A stretch of DNA of 64,000 nucleotides from a virus (taxonomy: Duplodnaviria > Caudoviricetes): the IMG/VR virus record IMGVR_UViG_3300008267_000012; one strand, given 5' to 3'. Positions 2,156 to 46,908 of the stretch are shown piece after piece; within the stretch, counting starts at the first letter, position 1; every line of letters begins with the position of its first letter. The translations under genes were made by a program, and so were the position numbers. The notes below the pieces were generated by a model. That model ran no database searches and was not told where the DNA came from. It saw only the letters and a program-made list of their open reading frames with translations.

Positions 2156-5100
2156 ATGACAATAAAAGAAAAGATTACCTACAAAACATTTAAAGATGAA
2201 GAGGTAGAAAGGTTTTTAAATGGTAGAAACATAAACCAAAAACATATTGTATGTATTGAAGGTAGTTCTTATTCTAATGTTGTCCAATTAGTTATTGATG
2301 ACCCTGAGAACAATAAAAAGTATATTAAGTCTGAAGAATATAAACCATTCATTTATGTCAAGGACTTAAAAAAACTTGGTATTCCTTTCTATAAAGATAG
2401 AAAAGATGAATATCGGGAGAATATGACAAAATATGGTATAACATTTAAAAAGTTAAAAATTACAGATAACAATGGTGCTGTAGTTGAAAGACTTGAAAAT
2501 GGGTATACACATATTGTTTATACGGATTCTATTTATGGAATGAGAGATTTACTTGCTTTCTTTAGGCATGGCGGTCTTGACATATATTGGAAATCAACTG
2601 AAACATTCACCACAAATTTGTTTACTCCCGATACCAAAGGGGGTAAACCTTTTGTATTTGATTCTAATAATGATAGTATATTATACAATACTGTTTCAGA
2701 GAATTATGAAATCATTATTAGAAATGTTAATAAAGTTGTTTATAATTCAATTCAAATAAAATATAGTGGCGAATTTACAGAAGAAAAATCTGATGATGAA
2801 GATAATGATAATCTAGATGATTTAATTAATGAGCAACCTAAAATAACCGTTCAATCAAATACATTAAAGAAATTAGCATTATTTCATAATTATGAAATCT
2901 TTCATGATGAAAGTGAAAATGTATATAGAATTATCTTTAAAGATAAATTAATTGAAGGTGAAAAGATAAATATATTTTATGAAATAGGTAATAGAAATTT
3001 ATTTTATACATTAAAACCTGAAGAACAATATTTAATTCAAAGAGGTGTTCGTATGTTTAATGGTTATAAAACATACGATGAAATACATAAACTTGTATTT
3101 GATATTGAAACTACAGGTCTCTATCCTAATAAGGATAGAATCTTTGCTATTGGTTGTAAAGATAATCGTAAATTTGTTTCAATTAACTTTGTTAATGAAA
3201 TGGATAATGATGAACAAGAAAAACAATTAATAATAAAATTTTTTAATATAATTAAAAAACTAAAACCTGCAATTATTTTTGGTTATAATAGTGAGGACTT
3301 TGATTTTAACTTCATATTAAGAAGAGCTGAAATATTAGGGTTAGATATATTAACATTAACAACAACTTATACTAATGATAAAACAATTAAAAGAATTGAA
3401 AACTCATCATTAAAAGTTGGTAATGAATCAAAATACTATACCAAAACATCCATGTTTGGTTATAATGTTTTAGATATAATTCATGCGGTATGGAAAACAC
3501 AAGCAATCAACTCAAATATGAAAGAAGCAGGTTTGAAATATGTTTGTAAATTTGCAGGTATTGCCAAACCTAATCGTATGTATGTTAAGAATGGTGCTAA
3601 GATTTTCCAAATGTGGAAAGAAGATAAATTCTATATCAATAAATCTGAAACTAATGAGTATGAATTAATACCCGATGAACATCAAAATGATGTTATATCA
3701 TATCTTAATACAAAACCTGATTATGATAAAGTAATAACAGGTAGTGAAATTATTGAGCAATATCTTGAAGATGACTTATGGGAAACATTGCAAGTTGATA
3801 AAATCTATAATGAATCAACATTCATGCTTGCAAAACTTCTTCCTACATCATTAGAAAGAACCGCTACAATTGGTGGTGCAGGTTCATGGAATCTTATTAT
3901 GACCGCTTGGAGTTATGAGAATGAACTTGCTATTCCTGTAACACCTAATAAAAGAGATTTCACAGGTGGTCTATCAAGAACATTCAAAGTTGGTTACTTT
4001 GAAAATATTTATAAGGAAGACTATGCAGGTCTATATCCATCTATTCAACTTGAACATTATGTATTTCCAAAACATGATGTAACCAATATCTTATTTAGAT
4101 TATTAAGTTATTTTAAGTTTACAAGGGATAAATATAAAAAGTGGGCAAAGGATGAAACACTACCTGAATCAGATAGGAAGTTTTATGATGCTCTACAACT
4201 TCCAATTAAAATTCTTAACAACTCAAACTTTGGTGCGTTTGGTTCTGAATATTTTAATTGGGCAGATTTTGATTGTGCTGAACGCATTACTTGTACAGGT
4301 AGACAATACCTCAGAAGAATGATTCATTATTTTATGAAATTCGGTGCAATCCCAATTACAGAGGATACTGATGGTTGTAACTTCTCTGTACCTGAATATA
4401 CAAATGTTGATTTAGATTTTAATACACTAGCAATACCAATTAAAATTGATGATTTAAGATATGAATATGAAGGTATAACATATAAGGGTGTTGATGCAAT
4501 GGTTGAAAAGTTTAATAATGAAATCATTGCAGGACAATATATGAAACTTGATAATGATGGTATGTGGATATCTGCTGCTAACTTTTCAAGAAAGAATTAT
4601 GCAAACCTTGAATATTCAACACTTGAAGATAAGAATAAGAAAAAGATATTTAATATTCCAAAAGAATATTTAAGTAAAGAAGATGAATACCTTAAAGAAT
4701 ACGCAGAGAAGAATTCTTACTTGGCAGAAGATACCAAGAATCTTAAAATTAAAAAGTCCAAGCCAAAGGTCACAGGAAACACAATCAAATCAAAAACCAT
4801 GTCGGAATACATTGAGGATTTTGTCAATCAAGGAATTAAACTTATCCTCACCAATAAACCTAAAGAGTTTATAGAATTCTATTATGAGTATTTGACAAAG
4901 ATTTATTGTAAACAAATTCCTATTAAAAAGATAGCATCCAAATCAAGGTTAAAACAAACTGTTGAAGAATATCAAAACAGAGGTACAGATATTAATGGTA
5001 AGGCAAAAGCTAAACAAGCACACATGGAACTTGTCATTGCTAATAATATCAATACAAGTGGTATGGACTTTATTTATTATGTAAATAATGGTACTGCAAA

Positions 5101-10860: not shown

Positions 10861-10887
10861 AAAAACTATTTATAATAAAATTATATT

Positions 10888-11274: not shown

Positions 11275-11290
11275 CTTTTATATTTGTCTT

Positions 11291-21727: not shown

Positions 21728-22513
21728 ATGAAAATTTGTAAGAAATGTTTAAACCCAAAAAATGAATCAGAATTTGGTGTTGATAAATCCAAGAAAGATG
21801 GACTATCAATTTATTGTAAGGATTGTCAAAAAGAAATAAGAGAAAAATATAAAGGCAAATATGACCATAATGAATATTATGAAAAATATAAAGAAAGGAA
21901 GAAAGAATACTATCAGGAAAATAAAGAAAAAATAAAAGAATATTATGAAACAAATAAAGAAAAAATAAGCGAAAAAAGAAAAGAATATTGGGAAGAAAAT
22001 AAAGAAAGAATAAAAGAAAAATATAAAGGTAAATATAAATATCCTTACAAACCTAGAAATTATACAGAAGAACAAAAACTTAAAAGAAAATTATACGATA
22101 AAGAATATAAACAAATCCATAAAGATAGATATAATCAAAAAAGAAGACTGTATAAAAAATTAAAAAAAGAAAATGACCCCATTTTTAAACTAAAAGAAGC
22201 ATGTAGAAAATCAATCTATATGTCAATTAAAAGAAATGGTTATACAAAAGAAACTAAAACTTATGAAATATTAGGTTGTTCATATGAAGATTTTAAAAAT
22301 CACATTGAATCACAATTTGAAAATTGGATGAATTGGGATAACTATGGTTTATGTAATAATGAATTTAATTATGGTTGGGATATAGACCACATTGTTCCTT
22401 GCGCTTCTGCTAAAACAGAAGAAGAACTTTTAAAACTAAACCATTATACTAACCTTAGACCACTATGCTCTCACATTAATAGAAATATTAAAAGAGATAG
22501 GTTGGATTTTTAA
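21728..22513 (+). CDS. HNH endonuclease with N-terminal Zn finger and KEYY-type low-complexity repeats
   Basis: CKKC...CKDC; WDIDHIVPC...NHYTNLRPLCSHINR. Confidence 0.85.
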   Translation: MKICKKCLNPKNESEFGVDKSKKDGLSIYCKDCQKEIREKYKGKYDHNEYYEKYKERKKEYYQENKEKIKEYYETNKEKISEKRKEYWEENKERIKEKYKGKYKYPYKPRNYTEEQKLKRKLYDKEYKQIHKDRYNQKRRLYKKLKKENDPIFKLKEACRKSIYMSIKRNGYTKETKTYEILGCSYEDFKNHIESQFENWMNWDNYGLCNNEFNYGWDIDHIVPCASAKTEEELLKLNHYTNLRPLCSHINRNIKRDRLDF

Positions 22514-22653
22514 AACGAAAAATTATATAAAAAATTTTTTAACACACAATCTATTTTGGAGTTGAAAAGTTGTGCAGGAATTTTTTACAAAATTTTTTTC
22601 TAATTGTAAACTAATTTTTGTAGCCGATACATCCATGCTGCCCCCACATCTAT

Positions 22654-22714
22654 GGGAGGGGGGTGGGTGGGCTGTGTTATAGGGGGGTACAGAGGGGGGT
22701 ATGCCCAGGGGGGT
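22654..22714 (+). other. G-tract cluster (potential G-quadruplex)
   Basis: AGGGGGGT at 22657, 22681, 22693 and 22707, plus GGG runs, in a very AT-rich background. Confidence 0.75.
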
Positions 22715-22867
22715 CTCCCTGACATTTCCAAATCTTTTTTCAACTTTTTCTTACATCAATCTTACATTAGGACTTTTCCCATATCGGTTAGGACTAATCC
22801 AGTATTGTACTTTGCCCAGGCGACATAGGACAAAACAATGAATGCGATTTAAGGCATCTGCAAGGCT

Positions 22868-22930
22868 CTACAATGAACGCAAGGTTCAAATGGTATCTGA
22901 ACCTCACCCGAAACTTTGCGTTGATTGTAG
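22868..22930. other. Long imperfect hairpin
   Basis: CTACAAT/ATTGTAG, AACGCAA/TTGCGTT and GGTTCA/TGAACC nested stems. Confidence 0.7.
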
Positions 22931-22957
22931 GCTGTGTTGCGCTTGAATTAGGGCATA

Positions 22958-22985
22958 AAAAAAGGGAGGCTTTCACCTCCCTTGT
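22958..22985 (-). terminator. Intrinsic terminator of the sigma-like gene
   Basis: AAGGGAGG-TGAAAG-CCTCCCTT followed by a T-tract on the minus strand. Confidence 0.8.
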
Positions 22986-23000
22986 TTTGCCGTTCCGTGC

Positions 23001-23795
23001 TTAGAAAATTTCACGGAGGGCTTTCACATTGCATAGGGCTTGCAAGCGGTCATCGGCAAGCATCCGCTTCTTTTGGACATAGTACGCATTGCGGTTCAGC
23101 CACCCCTGAAGAACGCAAGCATCTGCGGTAGGTAGTGGCGAAACCTCCACCTCAATCATCCGTTCAAAGGTCTGCCAAAACCTGCGGTCTGCATTGTTAT
23201 CGGCAAGGTTGAACAAGTGGCGCACCTCTTTTTGGAGGTCAATTTCCACCTTTGACTTTGAGGCAAGTGCCATTGCCCTCTCCACCTGCGGATTAACCAT
23301 TTCGTTGTTATCATCATCGGCAACGAAGAGGCTGATGATAGCCTTAGTCTTTGAATTGCCACCTTTCTTTGCGCCATTCTGAACGCATTGGATTGAGGCT
23401 TTCAGCCAAAGCCTCCAAAAGCGACCTTGCGTAAGTGGTTCACCATTGTAGGTGAAATCTGCGTGGCTGAACCGCAAGATACCCTTTTTCTTGGTCGGGG
23501 TAATGAGGCGAAGGTATGCCTCTTGTGCAAAGTCTTCAGCGGTCTTTGCGGTAAACCTCTGACCGATACCCAAAAATGGGTATTTTCGGATAAGCATAAA
23601 GGCAATGCCTTTTGCCATAAGTTGCGCCCTTTTATTGAACCCTTTCGGGGTCATCGGGCAAACATCCATTCTCTTTACGAACTTGCAAAGAGAGATAACA
23701 CGAACCTTTTTAGGGGTGTTATCAGATGAAACAGATACAGAAGGAGTAGTGGCAACCCCGTTGCTAACTACTGAAGAAGTGATTTGATTTTTCAT
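23001..23795 (-). CDS. Divergent sigma-70/ECF-like factor (putative phage sigma)
   Basis: Region-2-like TAEDFAQEAYLRL...FWRLWLKASIQCVQNGAKK, IISL, helical region-4-like C-terminus; markedly higher GC; ATG 23795 directly follows GATATTTGCA. Confidence 0.55.
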   Translation of the reverse strand: MKNQITSSVVSNGVATTPSVSVSSDNTPKKVRVISLCKFVKRMDVCPMTPKGFNKRAQLMAKGIAFMLIRKYPFLGIGQRFTAKTAEDFAQEAYLRLITPTKKKGILRFSHADFTYNGEPLTQGRFWRLWLKASIQCVQNGAKKGGNSKTKAIISLFVADDDNNEMVNPQVERAMALASKSKVEIDLQKEVRHLFNLADNNADRRFWQTFERMIEVEVSPLPTADACVLQGWLNRNAYYVQKKRMLADDRLQALCNVKALREIF

Positions 23796-23863
23796 AATGC
23801 AAATATCGGCATAAGAAGTAATACACTCCAAATCTGACACAAAAATAAATTTAAAATAAACCC

Positions 23864-24145
23864 TAACTCATTGATAATCAGCGAGAAAAAAGTTGAAAAT
23901 TTTTGTAAGAAATCATAACTCACTGAAAATCAGCGACTTGAACCAGGCAATGGTATATGAACTGCGTGAGGTGTGCGTATGCGTGTGTGCGTGTATGAAA
24001 CAAAATAAATGAAACAAAAAAATTTATTTGCTGTACTGAACTAATAGACCATAGGACAAAACCAAGATTTGAATCAGAACTCGTTGAAAACCAGGCACTT
24101 AGGTCTTAATTTAGGTAGTAACCATAACTGACTGATAATCAGCGA
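23864..24145 (+). repeat. Four copies of TAACTnnnTGA(T/A)AATCAGCG
   Basis: Copies at 23864, 23916, 24077 (degenerate) and 24125; the core CTGAT-A-ATCAG is palindromic. Confidence 0.8.
23971..23997. repeat. 27-bp alternating purine-pyrimidine tract
   Basis: GTGTGCGTATGCGTGTGTGCGTGTATG. Confidence 0.8.
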
Positions 24146-24457
24146 CTTCCTTTGTATTCGCATAACTATTTTTTTTGGTATCAGAGTACCAAAAAGGCAC
24201 ATCGTGTCTTATACGCAATGTTATGAGGCTGAAAACGCATTCTAATAACGCTGGTAAGGTTACCAAAAAACTTGGTAGAAAATAAATTTGGAAATATGGA
24301 AAATGGTATTCTGAAAAATGGGAAAAATGCCTTAGTCAAAATAATTGAGAAAAGCAAGGAATTGAAAAAATAAAATTATTTTCAAATAATTTTGGTAATG
24401 TCAAAAATCCTCCACTGGCCTGGCCCTGGCGCAAGGTGAAAAAATTTTCAGATTTTT

Positions 24458-24594
24458 TGTAAGATTTGAGAGGTGAGTTCATATACTATACTAAGACAAA
24501 AGCATTACTGCTTTGCAGGTATGTTTCTTTCTTATCCATTTGGTTTTTACACTTTTATAGAAAATCCCTTTGAAATTCAGAGGGATTTTTTTTT
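24458..24594 (+). ncRNA. Rightward 36-bp element followed by about 100 nt without an ORF and a terminator (putative sRNA)
   Basis: Element at 24458-24493; hairpin AAAATCCCT/AGGGATTTT plus T-tract at 24561-24594. Confidence 0.45.
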
Positions 24595-24617
24595 ATTCTT
24601 TTTTTAATAAAAAAGAA

Positions 24618-24664
24618 GAAGCCCGAACCAAGGGAAGGTTAATCGCAGGTAGTTCGCCCAAACT
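24618..24664 (+). repeat. 47-nt non-coding repeat, copy 1
   Basis: GAAGCCCGAACCAAGGGAAGGTTAATCGCAGGTAGTTCGCCCAAACT, identical to 25247-25293. Confidence 0.9.
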
Positions 24665-24722
24665 TTTTTAAAATAAATTAAAAATAAAAAAAGGCAATCA
24701 CTCCCGATTGCCTTTCCCGAAC

Positions 24723-25193: not shown

Positions 25194-25293
25194 TGTAAGA
25201 TATTGACATTGAGTTCATATATTATAATGTAAACAAGATTGTTACAGAAGCCCGAACCAAGGGAAGGTTAATCGCAGGTAGTTCGCCCAAACT
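25194..25293 (+). ncRNA. Rightward 36-bp element plus 47-nt repeat copy 2 (putative sRNA)
   Basis: Element 25194-25229; repeat 25247-25293. Confidence 0.55.
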
Positions 25294-40491: not shown

Positions 40492-40581
40492 AATTTTGTT
40501 TTTTAAGTTTTGTTACACTATAATATATGATTTCGGTTGCGAAATCTTACAAAAAAAAGGGAAATTTCTTTCCATTTAATT

Positions 40582-46697: not shown

Positions 46698-46908
46698 AAA
46701 TCAAATTTAAATTAAAATCAAGATACATTATCTTTTCTGAATTTGTTTCCCAAGAACTACCTTTATCACATTCATCTAAGAAATCTTTTAATATGATTTC
46801 ATTATCATCAGTATCATTTAAATCCCAATACTTTCTGATATGAGATTCAGTAGTAGTGAAAGGTTCTGCCCTTCCTGACTTGTCTTTAATTAAGAAAATC
46901 TTTTCCAT
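46690..46908 (-). CDS. Hypothetical protein
   Basis: Operon ORF. Confidence 0.65.
   Translation of the reverse strand: MEKIFLIKDKSGRAEPFTTTESHIRKYWDLNDTDDNEIILKDFLDECDKGSSWETNSEKIMYLDFNLNLIYG

Follow-up and report, generated by a model that had tools for sequence, protein, structure and literature searches.

A divergent sigma-like gene and its adjoining array of promoter elements as a candidate private transcription system in a Caudoviricetes virus

We analysed a 64,000-nucleotide (nt) stretch of DNA from a virus of the Caudoviricetes, a giant Bacteroidota phage from fresh water (IMG/VR record IMGVR_UViG_3300008267_000012; hereafter the window), and focused on an open reading frame (ORF) of 264 amino acids (aa) on its minus strand, at positions 23001-23795, which lies beside a long array of repeated promoter-like elements. 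We lean towards the reading that this ORF encodes a very divergent two-domain sigma factor, similar to the extracytoplasmic function (ECF) type, that reads the roughly 36 adjacent elements as its private promoters. Phage-encoded sigma factors are a classic means of taking over host transcription, and the Bacteroidota use unusual promoters and do without Shine-Dalgarno sites. To our knowledge, no phage-encoded sigma factor has been characterised for phages of the Bacteroidota.

The sigma-like coding sequence (CDS) starts with the ATG at 23795, spans codons 23004-23795 and ends in a stop codon at 23001-23003. A first-pass annotation, made from the sequence alone, had described a 264-aa ORF with two motif segments and a helical C-terminus without naming its strand. 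Both segments are present, as AEDFAQEAYLRL at residues 86-97 and FWRLWLKASIQCVQNGAKK at residues 126-144, five helices are predicted at the C-terminus, and the strand is minus. The ratio of nonsynonymous to synonymous substitution rates against a 92%-identical homologue is 0.15 (Nei-Gojobori), which shows the ORF to be protein-coding and under purifying selection. The same annotation had given the gene its own terminator and the highest GC content in the window, and both statements hold: an intrinsic terminator with a 9-bp stem and a T-run follows the stop codon on the minus strand (stem and T-run at 22962-22983, within 22955-22983), and the GC content of 47.3%, against 29.0% for the window, is the highest among real genes there. 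A GTG at 23840, which would yield a protein of 279 aa, was rejected as the start because the conserved -7 box described below comes after it; the apparent conservation of this "extension" in homologues arises from promoter DNA being read as protein.

Evidence for a sigma factor comes from the predicted fold. An AlphaFold model built from the family alignment has a mean predicted local distance difference test score (pLDDT) of 66 and contains two helical domains that are well predicted, at 72-85. The N-terminal domain (residues 35-144; 23364-23693, minus strand) is helical and resembles sigma region 2. When this predicted structure was compared with 48,161 PDB chains using VIA-align, the top match was SigC (2o7g_B; Z 6.1, 83 of 89 residues aligned, root-mean-square deviation 3.2), followed by BldN, CnrH, RpoE, SigH, SigW, SigJ, SigL, SigK and AlgU, and sigma factors account for 20 of the 50 best chains. 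The domain carries the motifs D88-F-A-Q-E-A-Y and F126-x-x-L-W-L-x-A-x-x-Q, together with a clade-specific loop at residues 99-122. In Foldseek searches, 10 of the 11 best matches in AFDB Swiss-Prot are named sigma factors, with residues 37-264 aligned, and the sigma-70 family supplies 16 of the 30 best matches among the AFDB clusters (best E 0.037). The best match in the PDB is chain F (208 aa) of the phiEco32 gp79/gp36 RNA polymerase (RNAP)-promoter open complex; we take this chain to be the sigma factor gp36, judging from its length and from PMC12276001 in place of an explicit chain assignment. Language-model features in ESM-Atlas agree, scoring 0.95 to phage Sigma70_r2 clusters, which make up 46 of 100 matches.

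The C-terminal domain (residues 186-258; 23022-23240, minus strand) is a five-helix helix-turn-helix (HTH) domain that reaches a pLDDT of 82 when modelled alone. Against sigma region 4 (sigma4) it scores Z 4.6 with Fusobacterium nucleatum SigH and Z 3.7-4.0 with CnrH, SigD4, SigL, sigmaB and the C-terminal domain (CTD) of gp36, and its best Foldseek matches include domain IV of DnaA (8btg, E 0.38). On these models the domain appears compatible with sigma4 yet not diagnostic of it. Each structural or feature score is weak when taken alone, and the evidence lies in the agreement among searches, from which we judge that the protein is probably sigma-like. The first-pass annotation had called it sigma-like and had suggested a check against sigma regions 2 and 4 by HHpred or Foldseek. 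Its call is upheld by the predicted fold, with sigma factors dominating the Foldseek results, and by the language-model features; sequence profiles do not uphold it, the hhalign comparisons being not significant.

The protein belongs to a very small family. Homologues form 14 clusters among 5.8 billion proteins, and a second collection of 1.84 billion proteins holds about 11 family representatives, all of them metagenomic in both collections. No sigma family (Pfam Sigma70_r2, r4, r4_2 or ECF) matched any of 20 family members at E values up to 10, tblastn against GenBank phages returned no relative of the protein, and a scan of metagenome contigs using the family alignment gave no match. D88 is invariant across the family, and the alignment of D-F-A-Q-E-A-Y with D-V-V-Q-E-A-F of RpoE is without statistical significance. 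The family escapes standard annotation and profile methods and itself appears to be new.

Judged by its sequence, the promoter of the gene itself (23796-23832, minus strand) is of the host type, that is, the sigmaA type of the Bacteroidota. A -33 TTTG at 23829-23832 is followed by a 21-nt spacer, the -7 box GATATTTG at 23800-23807, 4 nt (CATT) and the ATG, giving the layout TTTG-N21-GAtaTTTG-N4-ATG. This layout is kept in six further loci, seven in total, as TTTG or TTG, 19-21 nt and (T/G)AnnTT(T/C)G. The box stands 4 nt from the ATG in five of the six and 8 nt from it in L152, and the seven loci differ in their spacer sequences. The -7 box of Flavobacterium psychrophilum spans -12 to -5 (PMC9723704), so that a box placed 4 nt from the ATG predicts a transcript starting at the A of the ATG and hence a leaderless mRNA. 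Leaderless mRNAs are uncommon in Flavobacterium itself, at 5.5% (PMC9723704). The annotation had rightly seen a near-host -7 box rather than a full 36-bp element ahead of the ATG, and its proposal that host RNAP expresses the gene first finds support in the sequence of this -33/-7 promoter and its conservation in seven loci. The arrangement TATATTTG-N4-ATG also recurs on other genes, at 11279, 11938, 14265, 17112 and 53593 in the window and at 46785, 49659, 54495, 144733, 161488 and 167202 in a related 170-kb genome (IMGVR_UViG_3300011113_000664; hereafter G001), a design in which the host -7 box is predicted to be placed for leaderless early-gene mRNAs.

The presumed regulon is an array at 24458-48531, predominantly on the minus strand, with 36 elements of the form TGTAAGATTT-N7-tGAGTTCATATAcTATAtTA, 32 pointing leftward and 4 rightward; the reversed sequence, searched as a control, contains 1. 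Read as a promoter, the element consists of a -35 TGTAAG, a 16-nt spacer and a -10 [C/G]ATATA, with an ATG exactly 7 nt further on in ten copies. From its sequence, this geometry is of the sigma-70-family type, and a host-type reading of the window's elements was rejected, as they lack TAnnTTTG. The recount thus raises the 34 elements of the first-pass annotation to 36 and leaves their non-host nature standing. That annotation had also placed the gene at the head of the array, which is true in coordinate order only: the leftward array (24.5-48.5 kb) runs toward the gene, so that in terms of transcription the gene sits at its promoter-distal, downstream end. The array products are small proteins (DUF932, DUF6011, DUF1281_C and many unknowns) and small RNAs.

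Several details of the array deserve mention. The spacers of elements in the dialect of the window (dialect A, below) often hold a perfect 7-bp dyad, as at 40551, 42786, 43420, 44664, 45290 and other sites; examples are GATTTCG-CAAC-CGAAATC and GATTTCA-AAGG-TGAAATC, which follow the pattern GATTTnn-N4-nnAAATC with the variable bases compensated. The dyad hints at a hairpin, or at a site bound by a dimer, within the promoter. The rightward element at 24458 heads a unit of about 100 nt (24458-24600, plus strand) that ends in a strong terminator at 24559-24591 and is likely, from its layout, to be a small RNA that runs antisense to the array's end; units related to it occur at 25194, 25763 and 29249. 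Rfam searches returned only three tRNAs over the whole window at the gathering threshold and nothing meaningful in 22400-24700 at a permissive threshold.

Gene and elements occur together across relatives, a co-occurrence that the first-pass annotation had put forward for checking. In every locus with enough context (L001, G001/L004, L056, L058, L152/L153, L059/L060 and L155) the gene abuts an array of small genes, each with such an element. In G001 all 37 of 37 elements fall at 12.9-36.6 kb, next to the gene at 37.3 kb, and none occurs elsewhere, so the elements are exclusive to the adjoining array. A scan of IMG/VR for the element pattern, carried out independently of the gene, found a multi-copy array in one viral contig only, which was again G001, also a carrier of the gene.

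The elements come in five dialects that change with the protein. Dialect A (window, L057) reads ..GAGTTCATATAcTATAtTA, dialect B (L001, G001, L056, L154) ..TTTGATATATTAAGGTAT and dialect C (L058) ..ATTGGATATATAtTAgTAT. In dialect E (L152/L153) the element reads TGTTAGATTT..TcCGATATATTATA and the -35 half is altered as well (TGTTAGAT), and dialect D comprises L059, with another 36-nt element carrying a host-like TATATTTG box, and L155, with plain host-like boxes. On an IQ-TREE phylogeny of 21 family members the five dialects require no more than the minimum of four changes, and the dialects represented by two or more proteins (A, B and D) each occupy one clade of the protein tree. The similarity of the phages runs the other way: the array proteins of L152 have a median identity of 84% (n=20) to those of the window, those of G001 76% and those of L001 71%, in reverse of the identity of the sigma-like protein, at 30%, 41% and 46%. 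Between L152 and the window the sigma-like protein is the least conserved of 21 genes, and every promoter has been rewritten in both halves. Within dialect B the N-terminal domains are 64-87% identical even where the C-terminal domain is only 40% identical, and an indel of 6 residues, placed in the loop that joins the two region-2 helices, distinguishes clade A from clade B; in these sequences the N-terminal domain seems to track the -10 half of the promoter. Since protein and promoters change together, the gene would act as a specificity cassette that provides each phage lineage with a private transcription channel.

The GC content of the gene also varies along the family. It is raised in homologues of clades A, B and E (43-48% vs 29-32%), more weakly in clade C and not in clade D, which is the clade whose arrays use host-like promoters. 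Recent horizontal acquisition was rejected as the source of the high GC content, since the homologues of clades A, B and E share the elevation.

From the anatomy, conservation and co-variation that we observe, we infer core binding and promoter recognition, which would proceed in three steps. Host sigmaA-RNAP would transcribe the gene early from the conserved -33 TTTG and -7 (T/G)AnnTTTG, yielding a leaderless mRNA. The protein would then bind host core RNAP through its sigma2-like N-terminal domain and C-terminal HTH, as its fold suggests, and replace sigmaA. Finally, the new holoenzyme would read the approximately 36 array promoters, recognising TGTAAG, 16 nt and [C/G]ATATA together with lineage-specific flanks, as comparative genomics points to. 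The N-terminal domain would set the -10 dialect and the C-terminal domain the -35 dialect, that is, tell TGTAAGAT from TGTTAGAT.

Conservation around the gene breaks off sharply at its ends. The upstream non-coding flank (23833-24457) is 77-91% identical at the nucleotide level where the CDS is 30-46% identical in amino acids, and the downstream non-coding flank (about 22490-22961) reaches up to 97% nucleotide identity. In 40-nt bins the flanks are mostly 85-100% identical as far as the start and stop codons themselves, and identity inside the ORF is 12-60%. The flanks of L154 are 89% and 97% identical to those of the window at 39% aa identity of the sigma-like protein, and those of L152 are 85-91% identical at 30%. 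About 1.1 kb of ORF-free flanking DNA is therefore better conserved than the gene it encloses, with the break exactly at the start and stop codons. A bolder proposal, which we regard as possible yet hold only tentatively, is that the locus is a hypervariable, recombining sigma/promoter cassette in which ancient alleles sit in near-identical flanks, about 35 promoters are rewritten in concert and the resulting private channels, each serving the early accessory-gene array of its lineage, are mutually orthogonal. The earlier proposal that the protein redirects RNAP to the elements gains strong, if circumstantial, comparative support from adjacency, the co-variation of clade and dialect and the hypervariable island, and from these we infer the dependence of the elements on the protein.

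The flanks contain further conserved features. Three near-palindromes, TCGCTGAT-N4-5-A.T.AGTTAT (resembling CTGAT-N5-ATCAG), lie upstream at 23849-23887, 23901-23939 and 24110-24148 and are kept in relatives. Ahead of the middle one, on the plus strand, stands TTGTAAGA, with a -35-like TGTAAGA box at about 23903-23909; in L152, which uses the TGTTAGAT dialect, this box reads TTGTTAGATTT (TGTTAGA), following the -35 dialect. Box and middle near-palindrome may, by their sequence, form a divergent or autoregulatory site. Downstream there is a conserved TGTAAGATTGATGTAAGAAAA doublet (TGTAAG; about 22749-22766, minus strand), then GATTTGGAAATGTCAGG and, beyond these, an unusual C-rich tract at about 22651-22716 on the minus strand (G-rich on the plus strand). 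The downstream doublet of L152 still reads TGTAAG though the array there uses TGTTAGAT, and L058 has six TGTAAG repeats at 4911-4978, four of them evenly spaced 10 bp apart. A direct repeat of 13 nt, GTTTTGTCCTATG, lies on either side of the gene, at -266 and +165 (24050-24062 and 22824-22836 in the window, minus strand) and recurs at equal distances in L001, L057, L152 and L154; it does not mark the boundary of the divergent island. The AT-rich upstream flank also holds a CA/CG-rich tract, CATACACGCACACACGCATACGCACACC (23965-23998, minus strand), kept in L001 and L154.

A replication or partition module, in which an initiator-like HTH protein encoded within ultra-conserved flanks would act on TGTAAG iterons at an origin, could give rise to such a locus. 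The downstream TGTAAG repeats, especially the evenly spaced ones of L058, the non-coding flanks that outdo the CDS in conservation and, weakly, the DnaA domain IV match of the C-terminal domain all fit this picture. We nevertheless consider it very unlikely, as the N-terminal domain is sigma2-like, the searches turned up neither an AAA+ or initiator ATPase domain nor a Rep domain, TGTAAG doubles as the -35 half in 36 promoters that precede genes, and the locus lies at a convergence rather than a divergence of transcription.

A sigma factor that reads the array would share these phages with other sigma factors. An operon at 101-105 kb of G001 encodes a sigma-70-like protein (295 aa), a primase-like protein (320 aa), an ECF-like sigma factor (173 aa) and a PhoH-like protein (250 aa), with L054 and L055 also listed. 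Both sigma genes exceed the Pfam Sigma70_r2 cut-off, and the primase-like and PhoH-like labels come from reading the translations. Together with the sigma-like gene, these two canonical genes bring the number of sigma-like genes in these phages to at least three. The operon has a perfect host-type promoter, TTTG-N20-TATATTTG. A third promoter-like motif, ACTATTTAtAtaaaa (class ACTATTTAtA), lies 15-25 nt upstream of many non-array genes, at 10865, 14259, 15957, 21498, 21704, 49470, 51662, 53281, 54684, 57647 and other sites in the window and at about 40 sites in G001. Like the host-type class, it is the same in the window and G001; its members are, by sequence and position, probably middle or late promoters, and their invariance argues that the canonical sigmas serve this class. 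One such motif stands ahead of a gene for an HNH endonuclease with an extended repeat region rich in K, E and Y (21728-22513, plus strand); the gene adjoins the locus. A paralogous segment, 72% identical, is present at 57352-57647, within 56945-57655 (plus strand).

These canonical sigmas raise the prospect that the protein, though truly a sigma-like RNAP subunit, serves promoters other than those of the array or functions as decoy or co-factor, with the array being read by a canonical phage sigma or an injected factor. Expression behind a perfect host-type promoter would make the G001 sigma operon early as well, and the third promoter class needs a reader too. That class does not differ between the window and G001, whose sigma-like proteins are 41% identical, the dialects follow the clade of the sigma-like protein and not the similarity of the phage backgrounds, and gene and array are strictly adjacent. 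We therefore rate this division of labour as quite improbable.

Several observations weigh against a sigma factor dedicated to the array. Confidence in the full-length model is no more than moderate (pLDDT 66), the structural scores are all modest (Z about 6 at most, Foldseek E about 0.04 at least), and NtrC4/Fis and DnaA domain IV fit the C-terminal domain as well as sigma4 does. Searches of Pfam, NCBIfam, PHROGs and PDB sequences with the protein, a 14-member profile and 20 members singly assigned no family. The hhalign comparison with an RpoE profile was not significant, at 1.7% probability, with a profile that is narrow because its homologue search yielded only orthologues at least 86% identical; this insignificant alignment pairs DFAQEAYLRL with DVVQEAFIKAY of region 2.2. 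Comparisons with the two canonical phage sigmas gave probabilities of at most 0.2%, and the insignificant alignment with the sigma-70-like protein of the phage pairs the D-F-A-Q-E-A-Y motif with DIISSGNIGL. The arrays of the most distant clade (L059, L155) carry host-like TAnnTTTG boxes, and the two canonical sigmas of the related G001 are alternative readers of the elements. Lastly, a repressor with operators inside the promoters would yield the same co-variation, and it is mainly the sigma2 fold that speaks against one.

This last point extends to any sequence-specific DNA-binding regulator, repressor or classical activator, whose operators lie in the array promoters, for example for temporal shut-off, and which leaves promoter recognition to another factor such as a canonical phage sigma. 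Repressor/operator pairs co-vary as well, the C-terminal domain is a generic HTH, many dialect-A elements contain the 7-bp spacer dyad, the upstream side of the gene holds palindromic CTGAT-N5-ATCAG repeats, and the relative supplies canonical sigmas. Such a regulator is unlikely in our estimate: the modelled N-terminal domain has the fold of sigma region 2, the module that binds RNAP and reads the -10 element, the whole-length matches are sigma factors, a second factor would have to shift its specificity in step, and the other two promoter classes are invariant.

If the protein is indeed a sigma factor that reads the adjacent array, the family would offer naturally orthogonal sigma/promoter pairs, in at least four dialects, for a phylum that is short of genetic tools. 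It would also provide a clear case from nature in which a transcription factor and its dozens of sites change specificity in concert between otherwise near-identical genomes, with a bearing on the re-wiring of regulons and on competition between co-infecting phages.

Among known systems, the closest in architecture are the ECF (group 4) sigma factors such as Mycobacterium tuberculosis SigC (2o7g), Streptomyces venezuelae BldN (6dxo) and Escherichia coli sigmaE. They share with the window protein a sigma2-like domain, a linker and an HTH, are its best structural matches (Z 5-6 over 70-83 residues) and have region-2.2-like D-x-x-Q-E and region-2.3/2.4-like F-x-x-W-L-x-x-A motifs at matching places, in alignments that are not significant; the candidate promoters here also have a 16-nt spacer. 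The window protein departs from them in having no detectable profile similarity, in the 34 low-complexity residues of its N-terminal tail, in a loop of 24-27 residues that contains a beta-hairpin and separates the region-2 helices, and in a variable linker of 40 residues. An anti-sigma gene is not apparent, and the -10 element is A/T-rich ([C/G]ATATA) rather than of the CGT type.

In mode of action, gp36 of phiEco32 (PDB 9m7y) offers a close precedent. It is a very distant sigma homologue with an N-terminal domain like sigma2 and a CTD like sigma4, which takes over host core RNAP after host holoenzyme has read the early genes, works with the partner gp79 and reads AATGTA at -11.5 on middle and late genes genome-wide (PMC12276001). 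The presumed gp36 chain is the best PDB match in Foldseek, and the gp36 CTD matches the C-terminal domain at Z 3.7. The presumed regulon here differs in being a single contiguous array of 24 kb; the protein has no known partner, and its host is a member of the Bacteroidota.

Phage sigma cascades, in which a phage sigma expressed from early promoters of the host type redirects host core RNAP to a class of phage promoters, are exemplified by gp28 and gp33/34 of SPO1 and gp55/gp33 of T4, whose temporal classes are spread over the genome and which are conserved within phage groups. The logic here would be the same, with a factor that is hypervariable, physically coupled to its presumed regulon and matched by lineage-specific dialects. 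One feature of such cascades is seen here, a sigma-like gene under a host-type promoter, as read from the DNA of seven loci. A non-host promoter class also exists, with 36 elements that co-vary with the protein and may depend on it. The lambdoid immunity regions, in which repressor and operators form a hypervariable specificity module in conserved flanks, provide an analogy only: there too a gene-sized divergent island lies in near-identical DNA and protein and sites change together. The predicted fold here is that of a sigma factor, and the sites are promoters over 24 kb, not a few adjacent operators.

Lastly, sigma factors predicted to recruit host core RNAP have been described in the polymerase-less "group 2" jumbo phages, in a survey that includes minimal HTH-only and RpoD-like versions (PMC7824862). 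The phage studied here is likewise large and has a family B DNA polymerase, with no RNAP seen within the 64-kb window; the family of its sigma-like protein differs in matching no Pfam sigma model and in being found only in about a dozen metagenomic clusters. The first-pass annotation had presented the cascade as one not described, to its knowledge, for jumbo phages of the Bacteroidota. Phage sigmas of jumbo phages that lack a polymerase are known in general terms (PMC7824862), and what appears to be new is the family itself, its tie to one contiguous array and its cassette-like hypervariability with concerted promoter rewriting.

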